DNA from: Deltaproteobacteria bacterium
GTDB lineage: Bacteria; Desulfobacterota; Deferrimicrobia; Deferrimicrobiales; Deferrimicrobiaceae
Length of the DNA stretch: 54,340 nucleotides
Direction of reading: 5' to 3'
Assembly: GCA_025356865.1 (NCBI GenBank)
Contig: JANXQJ010000148.1
Location: 1-54,340 of the forward strand
In this document: in pieces, positions 33,234 to 49,587 of the stretch
Numbering within the stretch: position 1 is the stretch's first letter
Layout: every line of letters begins with the position of its first letter
The notes under the pieces: generated by a model
Told to the model about the DNA's origin: nothing
Seen by the model: only the letters and a program-made list of their open reading frames with translations
Databases searched by the model: none
Position numbers and translations under genes: made by a program

Positions 33234-33326
33234 GGATTACCCTCCATGCCCGCCGGAAAACCGACGGAGCTGCCGAGATGTCATGCGCATATTGGATGGT
33301 GCCGACCGACGAAAATAAACTGGGTA

Positions 33327-33355
33327 AAGATAACCGCTTGCGAGGAAAATTTCAA
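33327..33355 (-). promoter_or_regulatory. Candidate sigma70-type promoter for the nfnAB-like operon
   Basis: The minus strand reads TTGAAA-N17-TATCTT in the 118-bp gap. The -35 element overlaps the engB stop. Confidence 0.3.
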
Positions 33356-33948
33356 GTTGAAAAAGCGTTTCGGATATCTTTCCAGAGGGCATCGATCCCG
33401 GTACGGGTTTCGGCGGAACAAACCGCCGGCGGCCCCCCCGCATCAAGCCACGCCGTACCGGACAACCGGTCGATCGCCCCCTTGAGTTCGGTTCGCTTGA
33501 GTTTGTCGACCTTGGTCGCCACCCACCGGTACGGGACTCCGGCCGCGGACAGGTATTCGGCGAGCATTCGCTCCTCTTCCTCGGGCCCACGCCGCGCGTC
33601 CACCAGCAGGTAGACCTTGCGGAGACGGGTACAGGTGGAAAAATAACTTTCGAGAAGAATTTTCCAGGAGTCGCGCTCGTCACGCGACACCTTGGCGAAG
33701 CCGTATCCCGGCAGGTCGGCAAATGCGTACCGCGCCTCGATTTCGAAGAATACGATGCCGCGCGTCCGGCCCGGCGTCCGGCTGGTACGGGCCAGGTGCT
33801 TCTGTCCGGTCAGCGCGTTGAGCAACGACGACTTCCCGACATTGGAGCGACCCGCAAAGGCGACCTGGGGAAGCGCGACCTTGGGCCACGCGTCGCCGAC
33901 CGAATCGAATATGAGAAAGCGGGCCGGGGGGGCAGAGGGTCTGGGCAC
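33352..33948 (-). CDS. engB: Ribosome-biogenesis GTPase EngB/YihA
   Basis: G1 GRSNVGKSSLLNAL, G3 DLPGYGFA. 198 aa. Confidence 0.9.
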   Translation of the reverse strand: MPRPSAPPARFLIFDSVGDAWPKVALPQVAFAGRSNVGKSSLLNALTGQKHLARTSRTPGRTRGIVFFEIEARYAFADLPGYGFAKVSRDERDSWKILLESYFSTCTRLRKVYLLVDARRGPEEEERMLAEYLSAAGVPYRWVATKVDKLKRTELKGAIDRLSGTAWLDAGGPPAVCSAETRTGIDALWKDIRNAFST

Positions 33949-33958
33949 CAGTCGCCTG

Positions 33959-35710
33959 CTAACTCTGCCCGGCGGATTCGAGCGCTTCGAGATTGCTGAA
34001 AAACTCGTCGAAACTCTGGCCGGAATCGCGGCTGTACTCGAGAACGGAAATCTTGAATGAAAGATGCCCGTCGGAGAGTCGTTTTTCTCCGTAGAAGGTG
34101 AACGTGCCCAGGTCTTTCATGAGTTGATCGATCAGGTACTGACCCTGCTCGCGGTTCTTTCCCGGGAAAAGGGCGAGAAACGTGGCTCCGAAACAGCGGG
34201 CCGGGACAACGCCCATGACCTCCTGCCCCTTGAGCATTTCGGCGGTCTTCTGGAGGACGAAATCGCCCCGTTGATAGCCGTTGAGCTCGTTGTATTCCTT
34301 GAAGTTGGCCAGGTAGACGAGTCCGGCTGCGAACGGGACCTTGTCGCGGAGGGAGGTCGCGATGAACTCTTCGGCGAGCCCCTTGACGTGCCTGAGGTGG
34401 AACAGCCCGGTCAGCCGGTCGCGATTTTCGAGTTCCTGCGCCGCTTTCCGTATGCTCTGGACCTGGATCGTGTTCTCGATGAGAGAGGCCATCTTGTAGG
34501 CGAAATTTTCGATCGCCTCGACGTCGTCGGACGTCAGCGGACGGCGGCTCATCTTGTTGTCCACACCGAGAACGCCGATGACCCTGTCCTTGGTGCAGAG
34601 CGGGAACACGGCAAACGACTTGGAGCGGAGTGAGCGGATATTGCTTTGGGGCGCAAGGAGGCGGAGGTCTGAAGGCACCGCGTTCGATTCGTCGACGTGG
34701 ATGCTTTTCTTGGTCATGAAGACGCGCGCCATCGCCCCCCCCTGGGAAGAGAGCGGCACGCTGATCTTTTCTTCGGACTCGAACACGTTGCCGACCGAAG
34801 CGCGGCAACGGAGCGTCTTGCCTTCGTCATCGGGCATCATCAGCAGAATGCGGTCGACATCGAAACGTTCCTGGGCGACTCCGAGCACCAGCGGAAGGTG
34901 GGATTCGAGGAAACCCGAATATTGCATCGCGATGCTGAGGTCGTAGAGGCGGGTCAGGCTGTTGCCCGCCTTTTCGAGCTTCTTGCGTGACGCCGTGAGT
35001 TCCTGGTTCATCATTTCAAGGCGGCGATTGGATTCTTCCTGCTCTTTGTAGTAAGGCCTGATGATGATGCTCATCGCAAACCACGTGAACGCGACGACGA
35101 GGACGGCCATCGCCACGCAGGTGATCATGATGACCCGCTTGATCCGGTCGAGTTCGGAATAGGCGGTGGATTTCGGCTGGTCTACGGCGATCAGCCACCC
35201 CTTTTCCTTGATGACCCGGAACGCGATGATCTTGTTGTCGCCCAGCAGGGTATATTCGCCGAAGCCGCCATCGAACTTCTCGAGCAGTTCCTGCAGCTTG
35301 GCCTTGTGGACCATGTTTTTTTCGCCGAGTTGCTGGATCGGTCTCTCGGCGACGTTGAGATTGACGTAGGTGTCGCCGATGTAGGTCTGCGCCTCGACCA
35401 TGTTGCGGAATTTCGGATCCATGTGGGCGATCAGGAAGCCGTTCCGGTCCATCACCCAGGCGGCGCCGAACTTGTCGACCTTCATCGAGGTCAGCGCGTC
35501 GACCAGCACGGCACTGCCGGCATTCTCGTCCTCCGACTTGAACGAACTGATCTCGCGCGCAAGATCGCGCGCCGTCTTTTGGGCATCCACCTTGATGGCG
35601 TCTTCGCTGATCTTGAAGACCATGACGCCGCCGAGGCTGATGGTCACCAGCGCCAGCAGCATCGAGGTGATGATGAGTTTGAATCCGAGGGAACCGTAGA
35701 TTTTTTTCAC
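33959..35710 (-). CDS. Membrane sensor: periplasmic Cache-like domain, GAF domain and degenerate GGDEF domain
   Basis: Two TM helices flank a ~170-aa periplasmic domain, followed by a GAF-like region (…RILLMMPDDEGKTLRCRASVG…DRVIGVLGVDN). The GGDEF fold begins RDRLTGLFHLRH, but the active-site position reads FGATF instead of GG(D/E)EF. GTG start after GGGAGG. Confidence 0.8.
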   Translation of the reverse strand: MKKIYGSLGFKLIITSMLLALVTISLGGVMVFKISEDAIKVDAQKTARDLAREISSFKSEDENAGSAVLVDALTSMKVDKFGAAWVMDRNGFLIAHMDPKFRNMVEAQTYIGDTYVNLNVAERPIQQLGEKNMVHKAKLQELLEKFDGGFGEYTLLGDNKIIAFRVIKEKGWLIAVDQPKSTAYSELDRIKRVIMITCVAMAVLVVAFTWFAMSIIIRPYYKEQEESNRRLEMMNQELTASRKKLEKAGNSLTRLYDLSIAMQYSGFLESHLPLVLGVAQERFDVDRILLMMPDDEGKTLRCRASVGNVFESEEKISVPLSSQGGAMARVFMTKKSIHVDESNAVPSDLRLLAPQSNIRSLRSKSFAVFPLCTKDRVIGVLGVDNKMSRRPLTSDDVEAIENFAYKMASLIENTIQVQSIRKAAQELENRDRLTGLFHLRHVKGLAEEFIATSLRDKVPFAAGLVYLANFKEYNELNGYQRGDFVLQKTAEMLKGQEVMGVVPARCFGATFLALFPGKNREQGQYLIDQLMKDLGTFTFYGEKRLSDGHLSFKISVLEYSRDSGQSFDEFFSNLEALESAGQS

Positions 35711-35717
35711 CGCGCGT

Positions 35718-37310
35718 TTATCCTCCCGCGGGGGGCATTGGGGGTAGCTCGAACATCAAACCGGGGGGATGGCACTTGTCGCAACCGCCTTTGACCTGAA
35801 GTTTGATCTCGTCGGATGCGTGCGGGACGTGGCAGGAATTGCATGCCAGGTTGCCCTGCTTGTCGAGCTTGACCGGACGATCTGTTTTGGGGGGAACACC
35901 CCACGGGTGCGTGTGGTTCATCCGGCTCAGATTGCTGTGGCAGGAAAGACAAAGGTCGTTTCCCGGAAACTTGAGGAACGCGTCGTTTCGGGCCGACGAG
36001 TGGGCATCGTGGCACCCGGTGCAATTGCCGTCGCTGACGGGCTTGTGGACAACCTTGCGGAACGAGACGGATTTCAGGCTCTCATGGCACATGACGCAGA
36101 GGTCGCCGACGTATCGGCGCAGCGTGAACTTCTCGTTGGACGAGTGCGGATTGTGGCAGATGGCGCAAAGCCCAGCCGACATGGGACCGTGAAGGAACGT
36201 CTTGACCAGCTCTTTTCGCTTGTCTTCGTGGCACTTGAAACAGAGTTCCTGGCCGGATGCCATCGGTTCGTACCGGTGGGGCCTGCTGGAGAAGTTGTGG
36301 CAGGGTGCACAACCGCCAACGGGTATGGGACCATGAACGTGTTTCTGGCTGGTCAGTTCCTTGTGGCACCCCAAGCAGAACTGCGTCGCGGTCGCGAAAC
36401 CCTGCGCCCCGCCTTCGGGTGGGTTGAGGTCGTGGCATTTCTTGCAGGGGCCTTCGTTCTTCTCGGTGTGGAAATAGTAGATCGGGAAGGGAGATTCGAT
36501 CCCTGAACCGATCTTGGGTTCCCGGAAAATGACGATTCCCTGGTTGACCTTGCCACCGAGGTCGTCGACGACCTGGACTTCGATGTAGTTCGACCCCAGC
36601 GACAACGGCGTGCGGATGTAGAACAGGTCTCTCATGGAGGTGATGTTCTGCTGGGAGCCGCCGTTGAGCGACAACGACAATTTGCTGCCCGGCTTCGACG
36701 TGCCCACGACGTAGACGGAATCCTGATAGGTTTTCGAGAAGTTGGCCGGCAGGAAGACCTGCAGCGGAAGTTCTTTCATCAGTTTCTCGACGCCCGTCTC
36801 GCCCCGGATGACGCGACCGAGAACATCTTCGAGCGTCTTGAGGTCTTCGGGGGAGGCGCCTGTCGACAGGTAGCGGACGAAACCTTCCTTGTCGATGACG
36901 ATGTGGGCCGGGATTGACTGGATATCGAATGGCCGGGATGCAGCCAGTTTTTCGTCTACGATGAACGGGTACTTGATTATGGAGCTGTAGCCCCGGTAAA
37001 ACCGCTTGACCCGGGCGAGTCCGTAAACGTCGAGGTTAAGCCCCACGATCTGGAGGTCCGACGGCTTGAATTTTTTCTGGATTCGGGCGACATCCTCCAG
37101 CGAGGTCACGCACGTGGAGCAGTATATGGAGCCGAACTTGAGGAGTATGACCTTCTTTCCAAGGTAGGCGCCGAGGTCGACCCGGGTTCCGTCGAGCCCG
37201 TCGCCCTTGATAGCCACTGCCTTGTCGCCGATATTGGCCGCTTGAACAGCCCCCGGAAAGAGCAGCAGAGCTGCGCCGAAAAGGGCGGCGAAGGCAAAAC
37301 CCTTCATCAT
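35718..37310 (-). CDS. Exported fusion protein: TlpA/AhpC-TSA-like thioredoxin-fold domain + beta-sandwich linker + decahaem c-type cytochrome
   Basis: Signal peptide MMKGFAFAALFGAALLLFPGAVQA. Redoxin CxxC (FGSIYCSTC). Ten CxxCH motifs (CKKCH, CLGCH, CAPCH, CFKCH, CAICH, CVMCH, CTGCH, CLSCH, CNSCH, CDKCH) in the last ~230 aa, plus 11 additional His. Starts 4 nt after the TlpA gene stop. Confidence 0.85.
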   Translation of the reverse strand: MMKGFAFAALFGAALLLFPGAVQAANIGDKAVAIKGDGLDGTRVDLGAYLGKKVILLKFGSIYCSTCVTSLEDVARIQKKFKPSDLQIVGLNLDVYGLARVKRFYRGYSSIIKYPFIVDEKLAASRPFDIQSIPAHIVIDKEGFVRYLSTGASPEDLKTLEDVLGRVIRGETGVEKLMKELPLQVFLPANFSKTYQDSVYVVGTSKPGSKLSLSLNGGSQQNITSMRDLFYIRTPLSLGSNYIEVQVVDDLGGKVNQGIVIFREPKIGSGIESPFPIYYFHTEKNEGPCKKCHDLNPPEGGAQGFATATQFCLGCHKELTSQKHVHGPIPVGGCAPCHNFSSRPHRYEPMASGQELCFKCHEDKRKELVKTFLHGPMSAGLCAICHNPHSSNEKFTLRRYVGDLCVMCHESLKSVSFRKVVHKPVSDGNCTGCHDAHSSARNDAFLKFPGNDLCLSCHSNLSRMNHTHPWGVPPKTDRPVKLDKQGNLACNSCHVPHASDEIKLQVKGGCDKCHPPGLMFELPPMPPAGG

Positions 37311-37314
37311 GCCC

Positions 37315-37902
37315 TCACTTCTTGAGAACGGACTGGATTGCTTTTTCGAGCTCCTCTTCCTTGATTCGTCCCGACCTGGCCATGGTGACGTTCCCGGCAC
37401 GATCGATGATGAAGATGGTCGGGGTACCGCCCACACCGTAAGGATCGGCGACCTTGAACATCTCCTTGGCATCGAGTTCGTCGATGAGCGTCCGGATCGA
37501 GTAGTTTTCCTGCTTGATGAAGCCGTCGATGCTGCTCTTGAGGGGTTCTCCGTCAAGAACCACCGAGATCACTTCGAGCCCCGCGGCCTTGTTCTTGTCG
37601 GCCAGTTTCTGGATGACCGGCATCTCGAAGCGGCACGGTTCGCAGAAGATGGACCAGAACACGATGACGACCGGTTTCTTGCCCTTGAGGTCGGCGAGAT
37701 GGAACGACTCACCCTTCGTGTCCTTGAGGGTGAAATCTGGGGCGGCCGCCCCCAGGTCAAGCATCTTGATGCCTTCAATCATCGGGATCCCGCCACCTAG
37801 CGGCGTCATCGCCTTTTCCTCGGCGAGACAGACCGTGCCGAAGATGGAAAGAACCGTTGCTGCTGCGACGAGGAGTACCCCGGACTTCGCAAGGAAGCGC
37901 AT
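37315..37902 (-). CDS. Periplasmic thiol:disulfide oxidoreductase (TlpA/ResA/CcmG-like)
   Basis: Signal anchor MRFLAKSGVLLVAAATVLSIFG. VVIVFWSIFCEPCRFEMP CxxC thioredoxin motif. AGGAGG lies upstream of the ATG. Confidence 0.85.
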   Translation of the reverse strand: MRFLAKSGVLLVAAATVLSIFGTVCLAEEKAMTPLGGGIPMIEGIKMLDLGAAAPDFTLKDTKGESFHLADLKGKKPVVIVFWSIFCEPCRFEMPVIQKLADKNKAAGLEVISVVLDGEPLKSSIDGFIKQENYSIRTLIDELDAKEMFKVADPYGVGGTPTIFIIDRAGNVTMARSGRIKEEELEKAIQSVLKK

Positions 37903-37904
37903 AC

Positions 37905-38846
37905 CTATTTTCTCCTCCTGACCTTTTGGATGAGGTTGTTTCCGGTGTCGGCCACCAGAATGTCTTCCCCGAAAACATCGTTGATGAAAAAACCCTCTGG
38001 CTTCTTGAAAGGAGAATGTCCCTTTCGGAGGTCGCCCAGCATTTCACCGGCCCGGTCGAAAAGCACCATCCGATCGTTGACGGTATCGGCAATATACACT
38101 GTATACCTGCGGGGTTCAATCCGAATTCGGGCCGGCCCGCAAACCAGCCCTTCACCCTTCTGAAGCATCGACCAGACAGCGACGGAGAGGCCGTCCATGT
38201 CATATTTCCGGATGGAACAATCGGCTGTCAGGACATAAAGAAACCCGAAAGCTTCGTCGGAGTAAGCGATCGACACCGGCTTTTCGAGATCGTTTCCTTT
38301 TCGCTGCTGGGCGTAACGGCCCCATTCCTCGAGAAAGGCACCCGTCGGATCGAACTTCTGCAACCGGTTGTTGCCCGGGTCTGCAACGAACAGGTTTCCT
38401 TTCCGATCCAGTGCAAGGTCTGAGGGTTTGTTGAATTCGCCACGACCCGATCCAAGCCGGCCGAACTCGAGGATGTATTTACCGGCCAGATCGAACTTCT
38501 GGATGCGGTTGTTGCCGGTATCGAGCACGTATAGAACGCCGGCACCCCGGTCGATCACGATCCCCGACGGGTTGTCGAAGGATCCCTTTCCGAACCCGCG
38601 GCCACCCCATTCGCGCAGAAACCGCCCCCTGCGGTCGAGAACCTGCACGCGGTTGTTGCCCCGGTCGACGATATACATGTTTTCGTCCCGGTCGCCGACC
38701 AGGTCGGCCGGATGGTCGAAGGCCTCTCGGCCGATCCCGAAACGTCCCCACGCCTCGTCGGACTCGAACACAGGATCGGAAAAGGCTGCCCCGCCGAGTG
38801 CGAGAAGCAGTAGCAACGCAATGGTCGGTATCCTCAGGTTCCTCAC
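37905..38846 (-). CDS. Secreted NHL-repeat six-bladed beta-propeller protein
   Basis: Repeats GNNRVQVLD, GNNRIQKFD, GNNRLQKFD, VNDRMVLFD, GNNLIQKV. The GTG at 38844-38846 gives the signal peptide (M)RNLRIPTIALLLLLALGGAAFS. An alternative ATG at 38900 has no RBS. Confidence 0.8.
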   Translation of the reverse strand: MRNLRIPTIALLLLLALGGAAFSDPVFESDEAWGRFGIGREAFDHPADLVGDRDENMYIVDRGNNRVQVLDRRGRFLREWGGRGFGKGSFDNPSGIVIDRGAGVLYVLDTGNNRIQKFDLAGKYILEFGRLGSGRGEFNKPSDLALDRKGNLFVADPGNNRLQKFDPTGAFLEEWGRYAQQRKGNDLEKPVSIAYSDEAFGFLYVLTADCSIRKYDMDGLSVAVWSMLQKGEGLVCGPARIRIEPRRYTVYIADTVNDRMVLFDRAGEMLGDLRKGHSPFKKPEGFFINDVFGEDILVADTGNNLIQKVRRRK

Positions 38847-38907
38847 GAGGCAGCCCCCCCTTTCGTCCCGTTTGACGGCATTGCCGCCCGGTTCATTCAA
38901 ATCAGGA

Positions 38908-39999
38908 TCAGATCTTGGGGAGCAGCGACTCCGTGATCACGATCTTTGCCTTGGCCTTCAGAGGCGCGAGGAAAGCCTCGACCGCCTTGCGCTTCTTGTC
39001 GTCCTGGAGGAACGAGACGATCTGGCTGCGCACTTCGGCCAACGGCATGACTTTCCCGCCCTTGCTGAACATTTCCTTGTGGTCGTTGTAGGTGGCCTCG
39101 ATTTCCTTGTCGGAGACGACCAGGTCCTTGAAGATGACCTTCTCGGCAAGCAGTCCGATGAGGACCGAGTTCTCGAGCAGGGAACGGTCGAGTTCGAGCC
39201 AGCGCCCTTTTTCTCCCCCCTGCTGCTTTGCATAGGCCAAGAGGGATCGATTCGACAGTTCCTGCCCGATGACGCTCGTGAGCGCCTTTTCGTCCTTCGA
39301 GAAATCTTTTCCGGAGTGCTGGCCGCCGCCGGCCGCCATCCCCTTCTCGATCAAGACCTTGGCTTCGCCGTAGGTGATCTTGTCGGCGCCGACCTGGCCG
39401 ACCACCGTGTCGTCGGCCACTTTTTCGCCCTTGCCGATCCGGCCGATGACGGCGGTATCGATCTTTTCGGGAAACGCCTTGCGCGCCGCTTCCGAAACCT
39501 CGGTCTGGACCTGCGAAAGCTTGCTGCCGAAAACCGCCTGTCCCGCCTGGAGACGGGCATCGGTGGGCTTGAGGTTGTTGTCCTTGGCCATCAGGCCCTT
39601 GGCGGCCGTTTCGATTTCGCTTTCGGCCTTCTTGCCCCGTGCGTCGAGTTCCTTCCGGAAGAGCCCCTTGATGACGATCCCCGGCTCGCCGGCGCGAACG
39701 GCGTCCTTGAATTCCTTTGTGTTGTCGAGACCCTGCGTGCGCGCCTCCTGCGCAAGAATGCGCGTCTCGGCAATCTGCTCGACGATCTTCTTTTTCTGTT
39801 CCTTGTCGAAATTGGGCGCGGATACCAGCCCCCCCGGGATGCCGATCGCTTCCCGGACTTCCATCACCGTGATGCGGTTGCCGTTGACGGTCGCAACGGT
39901 TTCGTTGATGGATTCATCGGACGTGCAACCCGAAAACAGAACGGATGCTGCCGCAACGGCGACGGCCCCCATGATCAGTCTTGATTTGATGCGTTCCAA
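38908..39999 (-). CDS. SurA-N/PrsA-like periplasmic chaperone lipoprotein (no recognisable rotamase domain)
   Basis: Lipobox LFSGC. VATVNGNRITVMEVREAI is typical of SurA_N-type chaperones, and the body is Lys/Glu-rich and helical. The TTG at 39997-39999 follows GGAGAATTAC. The track start 40056 would include the upstream terminator hairpin. Confidence 0.6.
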   Translation of the reverse strand: MERIKSRLIMGAVAVAAASVLFSGCTSDESINETVATVNGNRITVMEVREAIGIPGGLVSAPNFDKEQKKKIVEQIAETRILAQEARTQGLDNTKEFKDAVRAGEPGIVIKGLFRKELDARGKKAESEIETAAKGLMAKDNNLKPTDARLQAGQAVFGSKLSQVQTEVSEAARKAFPEKIDTAVIGRIGKGEKVADDTVVGQVGADKITYGEAKVLIEKGMAAGGGQHSGKDFSKDEKALTSVIGQELSNRSLLAYAKQQGGEKGRWLELDRSLLENSVLIGLLAEKVIFKDLVVSDKEIEATYNDHKEMFSKGGKVMPLAEVRSQIVSFLQDDKKRKAVEAFLAPLKAKAKIVITESLLPKI

Positions 40000-40028
40000 C
40001 GTAATTCTCCCCTCTGTGATTCGAAATA

Positions 40029-40064
40029 ACGCACCCTTGGCGCGCGTTGGCGCCAAGGGTGCGT
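40029..40064 (-). terminator. Intrinsic terminator or attenuator between the lipoprotein gene and the chaperone gene
   Basis: 15-bp perfect stem acgcacccttggcgc/gcgccaagggtgcgt with a 6-nt loop. On the minus strand it is followed by TTATTT. Confidence 0.5.
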
Positions 40065-40103
40065 ATCGTTCAGGAACCGGTGCCGCCCCGTGTGAAAAGC
40101 GGG

Positions 40104-41225
40104 CTATTTGGCAGGCGCTTCAGCCGGAGCCGGCTCGGGGGCAGGCGCAGGCGCCGGTGCTTCGGCTGCGGGCGTCGCCGGAGCCGCTGCCGGGGCCGGT
40201 TCGGCCGATGGAGCGGGTTCGGGGGCCGGAGCGGGCGCCGGAGCCGCCTTCTTGGCGGCAGCGGCTTCTTCTTCGGCCTTCTTTTTCGCCTCTTCGATGG
40301 CCTTGCGGTCATCCTCGAGTTTTTTCTGCTCTTCGGAGACCTTCTTCTTTTCCATCTCGACCTTCAGCTTGTCCTGGTCGATCTCCTGCTGCTGCTGCTG
40401 GGTCTTGGCTTTTTCGGACTCGAGCGCCGCCTTCTGGAGCTCCATGTCGGACTTGAGCGCCTCGACTTCCTTGGAAGCGCTGTCCTTGATCCCCTTGGCC
40501 TCGGCCTTCGCCTTGTCGAGCTGTTCCTGGATCTTGCCGGTCTCGCCCTTGAGCGCCTTGAGACGGAGCTCTTCCTTCGAGGCCTCGTTCTTGAGATCGG
40601 CGATGATCCCCTTCTTTTCACGGTCGCGCGCCCTGACGACATGGGCGGTCATCGAGTCGCCCAGATAGCGGACCGCCTCGCGGGCCACCTCGATGTCGGT
40701 CTTGCCCTCGGTAACGCCGAACACCTTCCCGACCGTCAGCCCGCCGTAGGCGCTGACGTTGCCGACCCACAGGACGGTGCCGGTCGAGGGATCGACCATG
40801 GCCATGTCCATCGTGACCTGGGATGCCGAATCCTTCTCCTTGCCCTTCCCGTAAAGAAGCAGTTTGCCGTAGAGGATTCCCTGGACGTTCATTTCGTCGC
40901 CGAGTTTCTTGAGAACTTCCTTCTCGAGACTTTCGGTCGAGGTGATCTTGAGCTTTTTCATCGAATCTCGAACGAACCGGGTGTCTTCGACCTCGTCGAA
41001 AATCCCTTCGGAACGCAGCGTGGGAATGAGAAGCGCCTCGATGGAACGCTCGGCCTCCTTGGTATCGGAGTAATTTTCAAACGGGAATACCGCTACCCGC
41101 TTGACTTTCGTGTACTGGTCTTTCGTCTTCGAGGGCAACGCGTTGTCTCTCAGCATCGGGCGGGAACACCCGACTGCGAGCAGCAACAGCGCAAACCCCA
41201 GACCGATCGTCCTCGTGGTACCCAT
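40104..41225 (-). CDS. Lipoprotein: LpoB/DUF799/TolB-N-like alpha-beta domain + long coiled coil + Pro/Ala-rich tail
   Basis: Lipobox LLLAVGC|S. VAVFPFENYSDTKEAE...VQGILYGKL motif typical of that lipoprotein fold. ~150 aa Lys/Glu heptad-like region (…QQQQQEIDQDKLKVEMEKKKVSEEQKKLEDDRKAIEEAKKKAEEE). AAGGAGG lies 6 nt before the ATG at 41223-41225. Confidence 0.7.
   Translation of the reverse strand: MGTTRTIGLGFALLLLAVGCSRPMLRDNALPSKTKDQYTKVKRVAVFPFENYSDTKEAERSIEALLIPTLRSEGIFDEVEDTRFVRDSMKKLKITSTESLEKEVLKKLGDEMNVQGILYGKLLLYGKGKEKDSASQVTMDMAMVDPSTGTVLWVGNVSAYGGLTVGKVFGVTEGKTDIEVAREAVRYLGDSMTAHVVRARDREKKGIIADLKNEASKEELRLKALKGETGKIQEQLDKAKAEAKGIKDSASKEVEALKSDMELQKAALESEKAKTQQQQQEIDQDKLKVEMEKKKVSEEQKKLEDDRKAIEEAKKKAEEEAAAAKKAAPAPAPAPEPAPSAEPAPAAAPATPAAEAPAPAPAPEPAPAEAPAK
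40107..40247 (-). repeat. Low-complexity Pro/Ala(Glu) coding repeat (C-terminal 47 aa of the lipoprotein)
   Basis: AAPAPAPAPEPAPSAEPAPAAAPATPAAEAPAPAPAPEPAPAEAPAK. Confidence 0.7.
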
Positions 41226-41252
41226 CAGCTCCTCCTTGCTCACCTGGCTGGA

Positions 41253-43127: not shown

Positions 43128-46100
43128 CGAGAGATGCGCTCCCGCACGTCCGGGACGGAAAGCGGGCCGGGACGGTCGCCTCCGAAGCGACGAACCAGAA
43201 GCGCCGCGGCAGCCATCAGCCAAAGAACGGCCAGCTTGCCGGCAAGGCCGGTTCCGGCATAGAACCCGGCAAACAGCGCGGCCGGTGCGAGGGCGAAGCG
43301 CGCGGCGGCGCGCAGGAACGGACGCGTGGCGATGAAATCGGCCAAGGGGGGACTTGCCTTATAGTAGAAGGCAACCAGCGAGCGTCCGACCGGATTGGCC
43401 AGCAGGAACCCGTCCCGGAAACGGCGCAGCGTTTCGACCTCGGGCGCCATCTCGGAACCGTAGGCGGCCGTCGCGATGAAACACCCGCCGACGAGCAGGC
43501 CGTCCTTGAACGGGGCGACCGGCTTCCAGGTGGCCTGCCGGCTGATGGACGGACCGGTAACCGGCTTGTAGGTCGCCGTGATGATGGTCGAGGGCTTGAT
43601 GACGGCGATGCGCCTGAACGTCGACACGTTGTCGGATGACCCGAGCGAGAAACCGAAGCGGCCGGCGAAGACGTTGTCGGCAGTTCGGGCCAGCGACACC
43701 GTGATGCCCCCCGCCGTCGAACCGGCGCTCGACGAGACCAGGACGGTGAGGACGTTGTCGGCCGCAGGCACGTTTTCGTCGAGCACGGTGACGAAGGCGA
43801 CGGCGCCTTCGTTCAGGTAGGTGTCGCGGTCGAGCGTCATGGATGCGCCCGATCCGAACCGGACCGCGCCGGAATTCTTCGTGCCGAACCAGACGTTGAA
43901 TCCGCCGTCGCTGAACGCGCCGATGAGGTCGCAAACGAAACTGCTGCTCGCGATCTGGCGGGCCGGCTGGAACGGGAAGTTCCGCTTGGGGTCAAGAGGC
44001 GACAGGGCGGGATTGTCCTTGAATACGGTCCGGGCCGCCTCGTACCATCCGCCCGTGCGCGCGATGCGCCGGTTCGCCATGGCGGCGACGTCGATCCGTT
44101 CGGCCCCCCCGCCGGCTCCCTCGGTCAGGACCGAGGGTTCGCCGTGCGAAACCCAGATGACGCCGTTGTCCTGGCCGTTCATCTGGAGCACCACGCCGGT
44201 CGGGACCACGCTCGTTGTAAACCCGGAAGGATATATCTCGGCTGGAAGCGGGATATAGCCCGAGAATACGTCGAGCACGCCGTCGCCATTCATGTCGTAT
44301 GGGTCGAAGAAACTTTTTCCGGGGGCCTCGTGATATTCCCCCCGGTCGTAGGGCAACAGGCCCTGGTTGGTCGCAATCCAGAGCGTGCCGGCCCCGTCGA
44401 CCGACATCCCGTAGACGGACGACGGCACCGGGCCGGGCAACGGCATCTCCTCGAACTTGAGGGTCTGCGAAAAGAACAGGTCGTCGACGTTCCCGGAGGC
44501 CGGGTAAAGCGGGTAGAGGAGGGCCCCGTTGTCGGGTCGCGCGTTGCGGAAGACACGCCCCTGGCTGGTCCCGATGTAGAGGACGTCCTTGAAGGGAAGC
44601 GGGTCGGCCGGGTTGGACGAAATGATGTTGTTGTCGATCGCGAGGCAGGTGATCGTTTCGCCGGCGTTGAGCCCGCCTTCGGTCTGCCCGGAGCGGAACA
44701 ACCGCAGGTTGACCCCCGACTGAAGTTCGTTGGAGGAAGAGGTCGTGTCGAAAACGACGTTGAGCGCGGCCCCGCCGCCCGTCACGACCCACTTCTTGGA
44801 CTGCCGGTCGATCAGGAGCAGCTTGACGTTGAGGTTGGGCGGGAACGTCAAGACCGGGGGCAGGAAGCGTTCCCCCTGGACGCGGTCGAGCGACTGGCTG
44901 GTTCCGACCCACATGGTGTTGGATGCGACATCGTAGGCCATGGCCTGAACGGAGGCGGGAACGACCTGGGTCAGGTGGGTCCATTTGTTGATGGCGTAGA
45001 TCCAGATGCCCTGAAGTTCGGTGCCGATCCAGGTGCGGCCCGAACTGTCGGCGGCGTAGCACAGCACGCGCGGCCCCAGTTCCCCCTGCCCCGGAACCTC
45101 GGTGAAGTTTCTCCAATAGGGCATATCGGCAACGAAGTCGAATGCGGCGGAGAAGAACTGGACGACGAGTTGCCACCCCACATCGAGGGCGCTTCTCAGC
45201 GTCCAGGGCGCCAGGTTGGTTTCGTTGGCGCCGTCGACGGGCGTCTTGCGGTCGATACGGCTGCCGGACCCGAAATAATCGCCGGCGGAACCGAAATAGT
45301 AGGCGTTGGATGCCGTGATCACGTTGTCGGGGATGGTGCGCACCAGGTGCGGGATGAATGGAGACCCCGGGAAATTGGCGAGGTCGGGCAGGTCGGCTTC
45401 CATCACCGAGAGCGCCAGGTGCGGGTAGGCGGCCGTGTTGTCGTTGTTGACCGGCGGACGGAGCAGCGGCGTGGTGGACGACTTGCGCCACGCTTCCATC
45501 TTGGCGCCGTCGACGCGCCAGACCAGGATGCCGCCGCCGGGAAGGCCCCCATCGAAGAGCGTGCCGCCCGTGCCCGGCTGCCGGTTTTCGAGCAGGACGA
45601 ACTGGGTCTCGTCACCCGGGCCGTTGGGGTAGATCTTGAAGGCGGCCAGGCTGGTCTCGGCAGCGGGAACCGAAAGCCCCGCGACCGAGCGGGAGACGAC
45701 CGTCGGATTGAACCACCCGAGCTCGATCTTGGACCAGGCCGAGAGGTGTGACGGCGATTCGGTGCCGGGAGGCGCCCCGGAAAGGAGGGTGCCCGGCCTG
45801 CGGCCCGCCGAGACGGGGCTTCCCCACATGCCGTAGCCCATGAGGTCGAAGACGCCGACGCCGGAATAGTCGGCCAGCGCCTGCCCCTGTTCGCCCGTTC
45901 CGGTGGGGTAGAGATCGGGAAGCCCGAGCAGGTGCCCCATCTCGTGGGCGACGACCCCGACGCCGATCAACCGGTCGTTGAGGATATTGTTGACCCAGGC
46001 GCTCCCCGTGTTGTTGTTTTCGGTGTCGTTGTAGTACTGGAGCGACGGCACGAGCATATAGTCGGTTATGACCGAGTTGTCGGAGGTCCGGATCGGCGTG

Positions 46101-46858
46101 GTGAGCGGCGCGGAATGGGAATAGGGGTCGCTCGAATCGCCCGAGTCTTCCTGGCCGTATCCCGGGTGCACGATGATGACCGACGGGATGACATTGGTGC
46201 CGGGGGCCCGGTATCGGGTGAAATCGACGCCGAAAGTGCCATTGTCGAGATAGTTTACCGCCGAGGTGAGCAGCGATTCGACATTGGCGACTGAAACGCC
46301 GGCGATCGACGCGGGTCCGTTGATGGTTGCGCGGAAATTGCCGGTCGTGTCGCCTGCCCCAAGCGTGGGTCGGAGCCATTCGGATGCGAACATCGCCAGG
46401 GGATCGGGTGTGATGTCCGCCGGGGACGCCAGGGCGGAAACGACGAACCTGCCCCTCGATACCTCGGCCCAGTAGTTCTTGAGACTGGGACCGCCCCCGT
46501 AGAGGAGCGCGCCCATCGTGGCTCGGGTCGCGACGGGCGACGCGACGCGGGTAGCGAAATCGATCATCAGCACCAGCGGTCGAACGGCGTTGTCGAGCGG
46601 GGAGATCGCCATTGGGCGCAGCGCGGTGCGTGTTTTCGCCAGATAGGCGGCCGCATAGGGGTATTTCCCGCCTTCGGTTGAAAGGCGGGGCGCGACGGGG
46701 CGAGGGGGGGCTGGCACCCGGGCGCCCGTCGTCCGGTACCGTCCCGTGTATGGGTCGACGAGCCCCGGACGAGGCGGCGGCATTGCGTCGGCGCTCGAAA
46801 TGATGACCGGGATCAGTAACAAAAAAAGAAACAGCCCGTATAATTTCCGAGACGGCAT
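43124..46858 (-). CDS. Exported M6 (immune-inhibitor-A-like) zinc metalloprotease + beta-propeller repeats + Ig-like module + CFIATAAYGS / TM C-terminal tail
   Basis: Signal peptide MPSRKLYGLFLFLLLIPVIISSADA, with AAGGAG upstream of the ATG at 46856-46858. HEMGHLLGLPDLY zinc site. Repeats WIGTELQGIWIY, MWVGTSQSLDRV, LYIGTSQGRVF, LWIATNQGLLPYD, VWFGTKNSGAVRF. C-terminus GGCFIATAAYGSEMAPEVETLRRFRD... followed by a hydrophobic helix and RRF. Confidence 0.85.
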   Translation of the reverse strand: MPSRKLYGLFLFLLLIPVIISSADAMPPPRPGLVDPYTGRYRTTGARVPAPPRPVAPRLSTEGGKYPYAAAYLAKTRTALRPMAISPLDNAVRPLVLMIDFATRVASPVATRATMGALLYGGGPSLKNYWAEVSRGRFVVSALASPADITPDPLAMFASEWLRPTLGAGDTTGNFRATINGPASIAGVSVANVESLLTSAVNYLDNGTFGVDFTRYRAPGTNVIPSVIIVHPGYGQEDSGDSSDPYSHSAPLTTPIRTSDNSVITDYMLVPSLQYYNDTENNNTGSAWVNNILNDRLIGVGVVAHEMGHLLGLPDLYPTGTGEQGQALADYSGVGVFDLMGYGMWGSPVSAGRRPGTLLSGAPPGTESPSHLSAWSKIELGWFNPTVVSRSVAGLSVPAAETSLAAFKIYPNGPGDETQFVLLENRQPGTGGTLFDGGLPGGGILVWRVDGAKMEAWRKSSTTPLLRPPVNNDNTAAYPHLALSVMEADLPDLANFPGSPFIPHLVRTIPDNVITASNAYYFGSAGDYFGSGSRIDRKTPVDGANETNLAPWTLRSALDVGWQLVVQFFSAAFDFVADMPYWRNFTEVPGQGELGPRVLCYAADSSGRTWIGTELQGIWIYAINKWTHLTQVVPASVQAMAYDVASNTMWVGTSQSLDRVQGERFLPPVLTFPPNLNVKLLLIDRQSKKWVVTGGGAALNVVFDTTSSSNELQSGVNLRLFRSGQTEGGLNAGETITCLAIDNNIISSNPADPLPFKDVLYIGTSQGRVFRNARPDNGALLYPLYPASGNVDDLFFSQTLKFEEMPLPGPVPSSVYGMSVDGAGTLWIATNQGLLPYDRGEYHEAPGKSFFDPYDMNGDGVLDVFSGYIPLPAEIYPSGFTTSVVPTGVVLQMNGQDNGVIWVSHGEPSVLTEGAGGGAERIDVAAMANRRIARTGGWYEAARTVFKDNPALSPLDPKRNFPFQPARQIASSSFVCDLIGAFSDGGFNVWFGTKNSGAVRFGSGASMTLDRDTYLNEGAVAFVTVLDENVPAADNVLTVLVSSSAGSTAGGITVSLARTADNVFAGRFGFSLGSSDNVSTFRRIAVIKPSTIITATYKPVTGPSISRQATWKPVAPFKDGLLVGGCFIATAAYGSEMAPEVETLRRFRDGFLLANPVGRSLVAFYYKASPPLADFIATRPFLRAAARFALAPAALFAGFYAGTGLAGKLAVLWLMAAAALLVRRFGGDRPGPLSVPDVRERISR

Positions 46859-47042
46859 CTCACTCCTTGGGGTCGCAAACAGGGCGTCAAAAGACGCACC
46901 GCAAACGTGTTCGGACAAGTATAGTCAAACTGCGTGCCAGATCGACAATTATATTCGTTTTCAATCCTCATTCCGTTTGCCCATTCCCCCAGTTTCGTAC
47001 GGGTATACTATGTTTACAAATTTGTCCGAGAGGAGAGATGGC

Positions 47043-49517
47043 ATGAGAAGAAAGGTGATTGTTGCGGCCTCTTTGGCCGGGGCCTTCGCGATGCTCCTGG
47101 CCGCCTGCGGCGGAAACGAAACCGGGGAACCGGGGGGCGGCAAACGGATCGCCCTGAACGGCGGCACCGGAACCAGCGGTGCGAACGGAGGCGCCGGGGG
47201 AAGATTCCTGGTCGACTCTTATGCGAGCGTCGCGTTCAGGACCTCCGGCAACATCGATGCATCTTTCACCCTCTCCGACTACACGTTCTCCTATGTCTCC
47301 GGCAGCAACGGGGCGCTGGTCGCCTCGAACACGGCCGTCGTCCTCGTCAAGTCCGGCGACCCGGAACCCCCGGCCGGAACGCTTTACGTGACGCCCGGAA
47401 CCGGAACCCGTTACCTCTACAAGTCGAACGGAGACGATCTTCCCGGCCTTGACAACGACGTCGTCACCGGACTCCGGATCGCGGCAGGCGCCACGATGAC
47501 GGTTCCGGCCAACCTCGACACGAACGCCCTCTCGACCCCGGATACCCCGGTACGCGATACCGTCGGACTGTCCTTCGCGAACGACCTGGTCGTCGAAGGC
47601 ACGATCAAATCGGGCGGACTCGACGAAAGCACCCTGGGGGCCTTCCCGCAGCGCCACTCGGCGCGCGACATGGCAGGCATCGCCCTCGGCGCAAGACGTA
47701 TCCGCCTCGCATCCGGCGGTTCGATCATCACCCGTGGCGGCGACGGCACGGCGGCCGGGCAACGGGGCGGCGACGCCGGCTTCGTGCACCTCGTCGCTGA
47801 GTCCCTGCTGGTCAATGGCGGTTCGATCCTCGCCTCGGGCGGCAACGGCAACGGGGCGGACGGCGGAAACGGCCCCGCCTCATACGATGGCGTCGACATC
47901 GACTCGGTGAGCCTCGCCTGCAGCAACGGCAATATCATCAACACCGGCAACGTCGCCAGTTCAGGCGGAAGCGGCACGACCGGCGGCTGGGGCGGCAAGA
48001 TCGAGATGAACAGCGCGACCAATCTCGCCAACACCGGTTCACTGAACGCAGGCGGGGGAACCGGGTCGACCGGCGCCGGCGGAAACGGCGGCAACTTCAA
48101 CTTCTACGCCACCCACGGCAGCATTTCCAACTCCGGCGCGCTTGAAGCCCCGGGGGGGGCTGGAGGATCGGGCGGCGGGAACGGCGGCAATCTCCGTTTC
48201 TACTCGAACGACGTCGGCGGCAATGACGGATTCACGGGCAGGATTCTCAATTCCGGCAGCGCACGGCTCTCCGGCGGCAACGCCACCATTTCCGGGCCCG
48301 GCGGTGCCGGCGGCGGCATCGAATTCTTCGCGTGCGGCCGGATCGCCAATGCCGGTTCGCTTGCCACCGTCGGCGGGAACGCCCGGGGCGCGGACAATTT
48401 CGCCGGCCCCGGCGGCAACCTGTACGTCGAATCCTATTACGGCCAGACCGACAACAGTTATCTCTACGGGAATGCGCCCGGCTCGGCCTCGTACGGCACC
48501 GCCGCGGGCCCGATCCGGTTCTCATCCGACATCACGCTCAACGGCGGCAATTCCGAGGGGGCGAATGCCCATTCCGGAAACGGAGGACAGATCGAGGTCT
48601 ACACGTATCCGCGGCGGCTCGGCCTCACGCCGGTCGTGAACGGGAACGCGCTTCCGCCCGTTCTCCCGGTCGAGTTCGTCGGCTACGCCAGCATCTCGGC
48701 AAACGGCGGCAGCGGCATCGGCTATCAGTTCGAACAGGAGTCGTTCAGCGATGCCGGGACGCTTGAAATCTACACGCACGCGGCAGCCAGCATCAACGGC
48801 ATCGAGCTCCCCATCCCCCCGATCCACAACGACGTGCCCGTCGAGCTCCTGGGCGGCAACGCGACCGCCCCCGGCGCCTTCGGCGGGAACGGCGGACGCT
48901 TCTGGCTGGCCACCATGACCCACTTCATGGAGGAGAACCCGGGGCAGAACAATTTTGCCGCGATCGACGGCGGGCTCGGAGTCCAGACGACGGTCACCAA
49001 CACCGGCAACATCGACGCCCGAGGGGGCACGGCCTCGGGCGCGGACGGCGTCGGGGGATTCGGGGGCGAGATCTACCTGTTCGGCTACGGGAAAGTCGCC
49101 AACACGGGCGCCATTGACGGCAGCGGCGGTGATGCGACCGGTGCCGGCGGCGCGGGGGGTGACAGCTGCGGCCCCTACAAGCTCGAGTCGGCCGGCGACA
49201 TCGTGAACCGCGGCACGATCCTCCTGAACGGCGGGAACGGCCTCGGCACGAACGGCAAGGGCGGGAACGCGGACGGCACCCGGTCGAACATCTGGCTCTA
49301 CCTGACCGCGGGAGGCCTTGTCGACTCGACCGGAACCCTTTCGGCCAAAGGCGGGAGCGCGACCGGAAGCGGGATCAACGGACGCGGCGGCAACATCGGG
49401 CTCTACAGCCAGAACGGTCCCTCGGTATTCGGCACGCTCGAAGTCGGCAAGGGGAGCGGCGGAACGGGCGGAACCAACGGGACCACGCGGATCGACGTGT
49501 GGACTCCCCTTCCCTAA
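47043..49517 (+). CDS. Gly-rich repetitive lipoprotein, predicted beta-solenoid, unknown family
   Basis: Lipobox MLLAAC|G, with GGAGAG upstream of the ATG. About 14 units of the type xIxN(S/T)GxLxxxGGxG....GGxGGx(I/L)x(F/L/V)x, e.g. GGWGGKIEMNS, GGNGGNFNFYA, GGNGGNLRFYS, GGAGGGIEFFA, GNGGQIEVYT, GGNGGRFWLAT, GGFGGEIYLFG, GRGGNIGLYS. Confidence 0.75.
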   Translation: MRRKVIVAASLAGAFAMLLAACGGNETGEPGGGKRIALNGGTGTSGANGGAGGRFLVDSYASVAFRTSGNIDASFTLSDYTFSYVSGSNGALVASNTAVVLVKSGDPEPPAGTLYVTPGTGTRYLYKSNGDDLPGLDNDVVTGLRIAAGATMTVPANLDTNALSTPDTPVRDTVGLSFANDLVVEGTIKSGGLDESTLGAFPQRHSARDMAGIALGARRIRLASGGSIITRGGDGTAAGQRGGDAGFVHLVAESLLVNGGSILASGGNGNGADGGNGPASYDGVDIDSVSLACSNGNIINTGNVASSGGSGTTGGWGGKIEMNSATNLANTGSLNAGGGTGSTGAGGNGGNFNFYATHGSISNSGALEAPGGAGGSGGGNGGNLRFYSNDVGGNDGFTGRILNSGSARLSGGNATISGPGGAGGGIEFFACGRIANAGSLATVGGNARGADNFAGPGGNLYVESYYGQTDNSYLYGNAPGSASYGTAAGPIRFSSDITLNGGNSEGANAHSGNGGQIEVYTYPRRLGLTPVVNGNALPPVLPVEFVGYASISANGGSGIGYQFEQESFSDAGTLEIYTHAAASINGIELPIPPIHNDVPVELLGGNATAPGAFGGNGGRFWLATMTHFMEENPGQNNFAAIDGGLGVQTTVTNTGNIDARGGTASGADGVGGFGGEIYLFGYGKVANTGAIDGSGGDATGAGGAGGDSCGPYKLESAGDIVNRGTILLNGGNGLGTNGKGGNADGTRSNIWLYLTAGGLVDSTGTLSAKGGSATGSGINGRGGNIGLYSQNGPSVFGTLEVGKGSGGTGGTNGTTRIDVWTPLP
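47700..49427 (+). repeat. Degenerate coding repeat array (Gly-rich solenoid units) within the lipoprotein gene
   Basis: Recurrent ggcggcaacggcggc-type DNA and the peptide units listed for the CDS. Unit spacing is irregular (about 30-60 residues). Confidence 0.6.
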
Positions 49518-49545
49518 TAGAGCTGGAGATCATTCTCCGCACGTG

Positions 49546-49587
49546 ATACGGGAGGGTGCCTTCACGGCGCCCTCCCGTATTTTTTTT
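49546..49587 (+). terminator. Rho-independent terminator of the solenoid-lipoprotein gene, shared with the convergent gene end
   Basis: atacgggagggtgcc-ttcac-ggcgccctcccgtat stem (one mismatch) followed by eight T. The stop codon of the convergent minus-strand gene (49586-49588) lies in the T-run. Confidence 0.75.

Follow-up and report, generated by a model that had tools for sequence, protein, structure and literature searches.

A conserved outer-membrane redox module with a redoxin-decahaem fusion as a candidate porin-cytochrome conduit

Contig JANXQJ010000148.1 of a Deltaproteobacteria bacterium (assembly GCA_025356865.1), analysed here from position 1 to 54,340 (the window), contains eight co-directional genes on the minus strand (positions 33959-46858) that raise the question of which of them form a unit and what this unit does in the cell envelope. 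The original prediction, drawn from the DNA sequence, had proposed a candidate undescribed envelope system built around a protease, a beta-barrel and a redoxin-fused decahaem cytochrome. Comparison of related loci revealed that five of the genes, encoding an outer-membrane barrel, a lipoprotein, an NHL propeller, a thiol-disulfide oxidoreductase and the redoxin-decahaem fusion, recur as one array in unrelated genomic neighbourhoods, and that the protease is an accessory. Porin-cytochrome conduits are the known Gram-negative route for electrons across the outer membrane. By analogy with them, we tentatively interpret the array as an undescribed outer-membrane redox module, a conduit variant with a thiol-disulfide relay at its periplasmic end; we regard this interpretation as possible, somewhat short of probable.

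The genes were delimited from the open reading frame (ORF) listing with refinement of the start codons, and are lettered by coordinate (lengths in amino acids, aa):

A, 33959-35710, minus strand: 583-aa inner-membrane sensor; a frequent yet replaceable regulator
B, 35718-37310, minus strand: 530-aa exported redoxin-Ig-decahaem fusion; core, the signature protein of the module
C, 37315-37902, minus strand: 195-aa exported ResA/TlpA-like thiol-disulfide oxidoreductase; core
D, 37905-38846, minus strand: 313-aa periplasmic six-bladed NHL beta-propeller; core
E, 38908-39972, minus strand: 354-aa lipoprotein, SurA/PrsA-type chaperone module; accessory
Hairpin, 40029-40064, minus strand: perfect 15-bp stem between F and E
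F, 40104-41225, minus strand: 373-aa outer-membrane lipoprotein with a PelC/GNA1162/LpoB-fold head; core
G, 41253-43127, minus strand: 624-aa outer-membrane beta-barrel; core
H, 43124-46858, minus strand: 1244-aa secreted M6 (InhA-type) metalloprotease; accessory, lineage-restricted
Gene I, 47043-49517, plus strand: 824-aa Gly-rich lipoprotein, divergent; not part of the module

Direct reading of the translations assigned a signal peptide, a lipobox or a transmembrane segment to each of the eight minus-strand products. H and G overlap by 4 nucleotides (nt; ATGA), G and F are spaced by 27 nt, and the D-C, C-B and B-A spacings are 2-7 nt. The run of eight consecutive exported or envelope genes, the overlap, the 27-nt gap, the short gaps of the downstream genes and the 15-bp hairpin had all been noted in the original prediction and were borne out by the ORFs and their translations. 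Its domain calls for the eight proteins were upheld by Pfam and NCBIfam, in which, as it had stated, no secretin, POTRA, type V or type IX secretion system model matched.

Conservation of the arrangement was examined in about 90 related loci or contigs (given L-numbers below). For the census, 76 non-identical loci were retrieved via B alone, and neighbours were identified with profile hidden Markov models and scored only where the flank sufficed. The gene next to B on its upstream side was C in 62 of 64 loci. D accompanied B in 42 of 43 loci, G in all 13, and F in 17 of 18 (the single locus lacking it has a TPR protein instead). The other three genes were less constant: A was present in 21 of 29 loci, E in 8 of 18, and 5 of 10 loci had H on the upstream side of the barrel. 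Of the loci retrieved via G, six were long enough to judge, and B was present in each. The order was always G-F-(E)-D-C-B-(A) in one co-directional array. The evolutionary unit is G-F-D-C-B, with H, E and A as accessories.

Loci of the close lineage (38-67% identity in the barrel) all have the order H-G-F-E-D-C-B-A, and synteny runs on into the EngB, NfnA-like and GltD-like genes; since housekeeping genes are included, this conservation is weak evidence by itself. More distant loci have other contexts. L010, L011 and L014 (B identity 43-45%, GC content 63-70%) contain G-F-D-C-B-A between pilus/SLT-LysM and NUDIX genes, with no H, no E and no CFI-box ORF (the C-terminal box of H, see below) within 10 kilobases (kb), and with EngB not adjacent. 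L013 and L091 (GC 37-40%) contain G-F-E-D-C-B, their E carrying a peptidyl-prolyl isomerase (PPIase) domain, and in L034 and L090 (GC ~55%) genes for a PAS histidine kinase and a sigma-54 response regulator come after G-F-D-C-B. The recurrence of the gene order in about 90 independent contigs, some of them with such other contexts, places the arrangement far beyond chance. Overall, the host lineages span GC contents of ~37-70% (36-71% at the widest) and unrelated neighbourhoods. The source bacteria are uncultured, resemble Desulfobacterota and Deferrisomatales, and inhabit groundwater, sediments and wetlands; the module is widespread in anoxic-subsurface metagenomes.

These comparisons confirm a conserved, unnamed envelope system whose genes are syntenic in relatives, as had been predicted, and they redraw its limits. 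A division into one unit of H, G and F and another of E to A had been proposed; as functional units these are ruled out by G-F-D-C-B loci that lack H or E, the barrel and lipoprotein genes travelling with D, C and B in lineages devoid of protease and chaperone (L010, L011, L014, L034 and L090). The assumed central place of the protease was not confirmed either: with H in only 5 of 10 loci, it is an accessory, and protease-dependent processing is ruled out as the core function.

The signature protein B consists of an N-terminal ResA-like redoxin domain (CSTC), an Ig-like middle domain and a C-terminal MtrA/DmsE-like decahaem domain with ten CXXCH motifs. Searching the PDB with the single sequence gave MtrA (6r2q_A) as best match (E-value 5e-12), and a profile built from 21 diverse homologues placed the same chain above all others (E-value 4.1e-24). 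The score against the NCBIfam DmsE-family model TIGR03508 was 100.3 bits, below the curated cut-off of 192.2; judged by sequence, B is akin to the DmsE/MtrA family, yet is no member by the curated threshold. The haem domain had previously been described as c7-like, an assignment superseded by these MtrA/DmsE matches in NCBIfam and in the PDB profile search. For the N-terminal domain, the best PDB matches were ResA structures, and NHLRC2 (6gc1) and SOQ1 (7djj) were among the matches of the redoxin profile.

In the 21 diverse homologues (41-84% identity), the FGSIYCS[ST]C motif, the cis-proline, the 20 haem cysteines and the distal histidines are invariant, and the fused architecture is kept in more than 300 homologues. 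The CXXC motifs of B and C and the ten CXXCH motifs are unchanged across lineages of 37% to 70% GC. This invariance of the redox motifs points to a working redox role of the fused redoxin rather than to a remnant. One distant homologue of B is labelled 'Deferrisomatales bacterium'; the few relatives labelled 'Syntrophaceae', 'Methanoperedens', 'Methylomirabilis' or 'Actinobacteria' probably reflect mis-binning.

The barrel protein G has a signal peptide and ends in FKYNF. Its sole match in Pfam and NCBIfam was a weak, sub-threshold one to Porin_4, with no match to the MtrB/PioB models; searches of the PDB by sequence, including the family profile, gave nothing even at an E-value of 10. An AlphaFold2 model calculated from 48 sequences (predicted local distance difference test, pLDDT, 86) comprises ~30 strands from residue 28 to the C-terminus and contains no plug, POTRA, TPR or periplasmic domain. 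The best Foldseek match of this model in the PDB was MtrB of the Mtr complex (6r2q_B; E-value 8.5e-11, TMq 0.41), followed by 22-strand TonB-dependent transporters. By standard barrel geometry, the lumen of the modelled 30-strand barrel would be wider than that of the 26-strand MtrB.

The family of G is small. A search of 5.8 billion clusters yielded 48 proteins, and an exhaustive HMMER profile search of 1.84 billion proteins gave 65 representatives. Among 185,579 GTDB genomes the family was found in five species, all of them metagenome-assembled genomes labelled 'Deltaproteobacteria bacterium' or unclassified 'bacterium'. In the subsets looked up (ten each for NCBIfam and for cluster members), no informative name and no NCBIfam family was obtained. 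The barrel of L034 is a diverged homologue (hhalign probability 96%). On these sequence comparisons G appears to belong to no characterised barrel family; a match to a well-characterised unrelated family, against which the original prediction had wished to check it, was not obtained, and the relatives looked up are unnamed.

Lipoprotein F carries the lipobox LLAVGC, which is kept in the family, followed by a head (residues ~20-175), a long coiled coil and a Pro/Ala-rich tail. Orthologues of other lineages have ~250 aa and consist of the head only; the conserved part of F is thus the head alone. The GNA1162/LpoB-like match of the window head remained below threshold in Pfam and NCBIfam, LpoB matched seven of eight F orthologues, and the family profile gave weak PDB matches to PelC and GNA1162. 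With an AlphaFold2 model of the head (pLDDT 81), the top Foldseek matches were chains of the PelC dodecamer (5t10, 5t11 and 5t0z; E-value ~1e-11, TMt 0.68-0.82), with PelBC (9h80) also among them, then GNA1162, FlgT, CsgG and LpoB. The LpoB/DUF799-like head described earlier is therefore right; the closest solved relative, as judged from the model, is however PelC, a ring-forming lipoprotein beneath an outer-membrane barrel.

The hairpin between F and E (40029-40064) combines a perfect 15-bp stem with a loop of 6 nt, and its tail reads TATTT. Ten related loci (L001, L003, L005, L008, L012, L017, L027, L028, L030 and L031) likewise have a GC-rich hairpin, T-rich in its tail and different in sequence, directly 3' of the F stop codon. 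The element is likely an intra-operon attenuator, terminator or RNA stabiliser. The positional conservation suggests that read-through is regulated, or that mRNA stability differs, within the operon, which fits differential expression of H-G-F versus E-A in the close lineage. Where E is missing, F directly adjoins or overlaps D (L014 and L034).

The two remaining core proteins were assigned by clear matches. D scored 82.8 bits with the NHL model PF01436; in the PDB it matched the NHL domains of Thin and TRIM71 (E-values 1e-52 to 1e-45), and such TRIM-type domains far better than those of SOQ1 or NHLRC2. C, which carries a CEPC motif, matched the AhpC-TSA and Redoxin models (E-values 1e-23 to 1e-22), and its best PDB match was ResA (4nmu, E-value 2e-20). 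The extended motif FCEPC[RK] is invariant across lineages.

Among the accessories, E gave weak matches to SurA_N_3, SurA_N_2 and EpsD-family PPIase models. Its parvulin PPIase domain is gone: the alignment has a clean gap of ~97 residues where the orthologues of L012 (L012:7002-8384), L013 (L013:6800-8176) and L091 (L091:6860-8275) carry Rotamase_2. The same excision was observed in the close orthologue of L003, with more distant orthologues retaining the domain. The chaperone arms of E alone seem to suffice in the window lineage. The sensor A has two transmembrane segments flanking a periplasmic Cache-like domain, then GAF and GGDEF domains. The GGDEF signature is degenerate, RCFGATF in the window and RC[FY]G[AS]T[FM] in every lineage; as the same site is found in all lineages, the degeneracy is ancient and maintained. 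This fits a receptor or scaffold, as far as the motif can tell, rather than a cyclase. The PAS histidine kinase and sigma-54 response regulator of L034 and L090 stand in place of A.

Protein H comprises a signal peptide, an M6 domain (PF05547, 26.7 bits, cut-off 22), Reg_prop-type propeller repeats and a CFI-box-CTERM domain (NF041770, 94.8 bits, cut-off 40), in which CFIATAAYGS is followed by a hydrophobic C-terminal transmembrane tail. Its score with TIGR03296 was 104.4 bits, just under the cut-off of 110.8, and sequence searches of the PDB gave no match. The HEMGHLLGLPD motif (HEXXHXXGXXD) is kept in orthologues, and the sole invariant cysteine is that of the CFI box. H is the only CFI-box protein in the window; an incomplete literature search for CFI-box-CTERM or CFIATAA returned no paper. 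A second CFI-box-CTERM protein (CFIATAAWGS) is encoded in L004 (L004:1-418), a few kb upstream of the M6 protease.

Other large proteins were observed upstream of the barrel in further lineages. L013 and L091 encode an FG-GAP/beta-helix protein (L013:846-3875 and L091:1-2657) ending in C[FY]VA[ST]AS[YF]D, a shortened CFI-like box with no transmembrane tail. By this motif, the CFI box may mark partners of the module, whatever the passenger domain. L034 encodes an extra cytochrome (L034:106-2334) with nine CXXCH and two CX3-4CH motifs in 742 visible residues (at least 11 haem motifs), which is confined to this lineage, and a Big_1/Invasin_D3 protein (L034:2349-4709); Big_1/Invasin_D3 proteins also occur upstream in L003, L004 and L013. 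Directly upstream of the barrel, L091 has a MopE-like copper-binding protein (L091:2664-4121; PF11617, 21 cysteines), which hints at a copper connection. TlpA-type redoxins reduce copper-site cysteines and service copper sites.

How might these proteins work together? In the conduit that we tentatively propose, the C-terminal decahaem rod of B would thread into G, like MtrA in MtrB, giving a haem wire across the outer membrane, while the bulky N-terminal redoxin and Ig-like domains would remain in the periplasm at the barrel mouth. Three partners could exchange electrons with the CXXC motif of B, namely the innermost haems, redoxin C, and clients bound to propeller D. Lipoprotein F, with its anchor in the inner leaflet of the outer membrane, would form a PelC-like collar beneath G, and in the window lineage its coiled coil and Pro/Ala tail could reach across the periplasm. 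H may be a surface partner or processing enzyme, E a folding helper and A a regulator. Electron donors or acceptors outside the cell would in this way be coupled to thiol-disulfide chemistry in the periplasm. Directly observed are the set of parts, their folds, the invariance of the redox motifs and the linkage between lineages; we infer the insertion of B into G, the ring formation by F, and the flow and direction of electrons between haems and thiols.

This proposal is favoured because B and G have their nearest relatives of solved structure, MtrA and MtrB, in one and the same complex, because G is large and plug-less and is strictly linked to B, and because the redox motifs are invariant. 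The extra cytochrome of L034 lies upstream of the barrel, in the position expected of an outer partner; F is folded like PelC, the lipoprotein that encircles the PelB barrel; and a published analogue, the uet cluster described below, has been read as a conduit. The permanent, invariant fusion of a CXXC redoxin to the wire, together with the second redoxin and the NHL propeller, suggests that the thiol centre is a working terminus, since a mere maturation aid would call for no such arrangement. The original prediction had left the choice between an export, processing or anchoring machine and a porin-cytochrome conduit: the MtrA and MtrB matches favour the conduit, and its protease-centred processing did not hold.

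Several observations weigh against a conduit. The insertion of B into G is wholly an argument from analogy. B falls under the DmsE-family cut-off (100 versus 192 bits), and G matches neither the MtrB/PioB models nor PDB sequences and has a TM-score to MtrB of just 0.41. Three or four genes lie between B and G, whereas MtrA and MtrB genes are adjacent, and no extracellular cytochrome is encoded within the 54-kb window. PelC-type collars belong to exporters and not to conduits, so that a secretion role fits equally well or better. ResA-like redoxins usually serve cytochrome c maturation, and those encoded here could simply be dedicated maturation factors. We know of no precedent for direct electron exchange between a c-type haem and a thioredoxin-fold CXXC motif.

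A bolder version of the conduit proposal is that the wire leads to a thiol-disulfide oxidoreductase and not to a pool of periplasmic cytochromes, which would make it a new conduit class; we consider this unlikely. Electrons would then pass along the barrel-inserted decahaem, the fused CXXC motif, redoxin C and NHL-bound clients, and the CFI-box surface proteins are possible cysteine clients. If true, anaerobes could reduce or form disulfides in the periplasm independently of CcdA/DsbD or DsbB.

In a different scheme, the main hypothesis of the original prediction, B would be the cargo of an export, assembly or processing machine resembling the Geobacter osc/oec systems. The redoxins of C and B would mature B, E would fold it, the F collar would guide it, G would pass it to the surface and D would organise it there, and H, where present, would cleave off the redoxin pro-domain. 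The parts parallel those of the osc cluster, with its PPIase chaperone OscH, channel-like OscEFG and propeller-like OscD (as summarised in PMC13194489), and those of the OmcE clusters, with two propeller lipoproteins and a large barrel (bioRxiv 10.1101/2025.10.22.684050). The exporter component PelC shares its fold with F, the gene of H, whose product is predicted to be an active metalloprotease, immediately precedes G and overlaps it by 4 nt, and ResA-like redoxins are classical cytochrome-maturation factors. However, H is missing in half of the loci and E in over half, so that processing and dedicated folding are no core steps, and an invariant 1:1 fusion of a maturation factor to its own substrate would be an odd design. 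B resembles the barrel-inserted MtrA and not the filament subunits OmcS, OmcE or OmcZ; the window encodes no second cytochrome or filament subunit; and the exhaustive barrel search yielded no named Geobacter protein. We judge such a machine, too, to be an unlikely explanation.

A purely periplasmic thiol-redox system, less likely again, would employ B as a soluble electron carrier that supplies electrons to, or withdraws them from, the two TlpA-like redoxins and the NHL protein for the maturation or repair of periplasmic proteins such as cytochromes or cuproproteins. D, C and B are indeed the tightest trio (2-7 nt gaps; co-occurrence 62 of 64 and 42 of 43), the pairing of thioredoxin-like and NHL domains recurs in the single proteins NHLRC2 (6gc1) and SOQ1 (7djj), and the MopE-like copper protein adjoins the module in L091. 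The barrel and lipoprotein would then be a separate transport function joined by co-regulation only, but G accompanied B in 13 of 13 loci and F did so in 17 of 18, in unrelated surroundings, which would scarcely be expected unless the proteins were linked physically or functionally. F and D overlap in some lineages, and MtrA-family decahaems sit inside barrels (6r2q).

Lower still we place an export or anchoring system for large surface proteins, in which G and F would be the conduit for the CFI-box M6 protease and the CFI-like beta-helix, Big_1/invasin-like and MopE-like proteins, with the redoxins and cytochrome acting on the invariant CFI-box cysteine in disulfide or covalent-anchor chemistry. 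This would account for the M6 protease with CFIATAAYGS directly upstream of the barrel (window, L001-L009 and L012), for the FG-GAP/beta-helix protein ending in C[FY]VA[ST]AS[YF]D directly upstream in L013 and L091, for Big_1/Invasin_D3 proteins in L003, L004, L013 and L034 and the MopE-like protein in L091, and for the fact that the CFI-box cysteine is the only invariant one of H. The pattern is suggestive in three groups of lineages. Yet L010, L011, L014 and L090 have neither a CFI-box ORF within 10 kb nor a large secreted protein upstream of the barrel, the ten-haem wire is left with no clear role, and the argument is one from motif resemblance. Chance juxtaposition of unrelated envelope genes held by shared descent in one narrow lineage, for which the synteny of the closest relatives into EngB, NfnA-like and GltD-like housekeeping genes might speak, is very improbable and for practical purposes refuted by a core order kept across different flanking genes and GC contents of 37-70%.

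The window itself is high-GC chromosomal DNA (58-68% GC). Rfam and tRNA scans of its 54 kb gave no matches, and B is its only ORF with more than one CXXCH motif. Outside the region described, the genes are of the housekeeping type (topA, dprA, dxs, ispA, xseA, ftsEX, ctpA, metH, murI, EngB and an NfnAB-like pair). EngB and the NfnAB-like pair (a DHODB_Fe-S_bind gene plus a GltD-like gene) lie 3' of the module (30952-33948, minus strand); their synteny with it extends over the close lineage, L012 and L031 and is lost in more distant lineages. The divergent gene I (47043-49517, plus strand), which had been counted as a member, is ruled out as such by its absence from every related locus; its product has the lipobox LLAACGG and GGxGG-type repeats and matches no Pfam or NCBIfam family. 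It is followed by a terminator (49545-49581), a strong 16-bp hairpin with a T run, shared with the convergent gene at 49586-51586, whose 666-aa product looks by its translation like a polytopic membrane protein and has no family match. Two radical SAM genes (51178-52077 and 53127-54263) lie beyond gene I; radical SAM/B12-binding and glycosyltransferase genes are also found upstream of H in L001 and L004.

To our knowledge, only a few conduit architectures have been described, namely Mtr/Pio/Mto, the Geobacter Pcc and Ext conduits, Uet and PCC3. The module would add a distinct one, composed of a barrel from a tiny unnamed family, a PelC-like collar and an MtrA-like wire fused to an oxidoreductase. 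If the fusion works as a redox relay, extracellular electron transfer would be joined to periplasmic cysteine chemistry, a link of which a still incomplete literature check found no description. The module also offers a compact five-gene signature for mining metagenomes, and a first genomic context for the uncharacterised CFI-box-CTERM domain.

Among known systems, MtrAB, PioAB and MtoAB share with the module an MtrA/DmsE-type decahaem cytochrome and a very large plug-less outer-membrane barrel, and two-component conduits without an outer cytochrome exist in PioAB and MtoAB (PMC10734462). Differences from Mtr are the ~30 strands of G versus 26 in MtrB, with no detectable sequence relation of G to MtrB or PioB, the N-terminal redoxin and Ig-like domains that B adds, and the obligatory presence of three further partners (PelC-like lipoprotein, NHL propeller, second redoxin). 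By curated thresholds (the DmsE score, the missing MtrB/PioB match) and by its non-adjacent genes, the module does not qualify as a member of the Mtr family.

In 'Ca. Tenderia electrophaga', the uet cluster, which has been read as a conduit for electrons through the outer membrane, encodes a PPIase (UetB), a 28-strand barrel (UetC), NHL proteins (UetH and UetI), an undecahaem cytochrome (UetJ), UetA and UetDEG (bioRxiv 10.1101/2022.05.06.490989; PMC10734462). With it the module shares NHL propellers, a multihaem cytochrome and a barrel that exceeds MtrB in size; its chaperone E is of PPIase type by orthology, the domain itself being deleted in the window. Set apart by the cluster descriptions, the module has a single, redoxin-fused cytochrome and no triheme or tetrahaem partners, cupredoxin or ccsAB, and it adds the PelC-like lipoprotein and a free TlpA-like redoxin.

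With the Geobacter osc and OmcE clusters, as described at second hand, the module has in common a chaperone of PPIase lineage, propellers and a large barrel or channel beside cytochromes (PMC13194489, summarising Shen et al. 2025; bioRxiv 10.1101/2025.10.22.684050). By the same descriptions, it differs in having no OmcS- or OmcE-like filament subunit, an MtrA-like cytochrome and redoxins in a central place. The resemblance to Geobacter filament loci that had been predicted is real as a parts list only, according to these sources (PMC13194489; bioRxiv 10.1101/2025.10.22.684050; bioRxiv 10.1101/2022.05.06.490989). Of the traits that recur in the Uet, osc and oec clusters, a barrel of more than 26 strands encoded with a multihaem cytochrome (G with ~30 strands, 13 of 13 with B) and an NHL or beta-propeller protein (D, 42 of 43 loci) are present. 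The PPIase chaperone has its counterpart in E, which is orthologous to PPIase-bearing proteins with the domain deleted and is absent from 10 of 18 loci, and the defining trait of these clusters, an extracellular cytochrome or filament subunit of the OmcS, OmcE, UetA or UetJ kind, is not encoded in the 54-kb window.

With the PelBC exporter (5t10, 5t11 and 9h80), F shares the PelC fold, the lipoprotein nature and a neighbouring barrel gene; G has no TPR domain and ~30 strands, F adds the coiled coil and Pro/Ala tail, and its ring is putative. Genes for pel biosynthesis are absent from the window. C and the redoxin domain of B (CS[ST]C) share the fold, the CXXC motif and the cis-proline with ResA, TlpA and CcmG, from which the module differs in that one redoxin is covalently fused to a decahaem domain; genes for CcdA/DsbD, Ccm or Ccs were found neither in the window nor in the 10-kb flanks of the related loci examined. 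The pairing of a thioredoxin-like domain with an NHL propeller is also known from NHLRC2 and SOQ1, there fused in one protein. Taken as a whole, the module resembles porin-cytochrome and extracellular-electron-transfer systems in outline, and differs from them in its barrel family, its PelC-fold lipoprotein, its redoxin-decahaem fusion and its single cytochrome.

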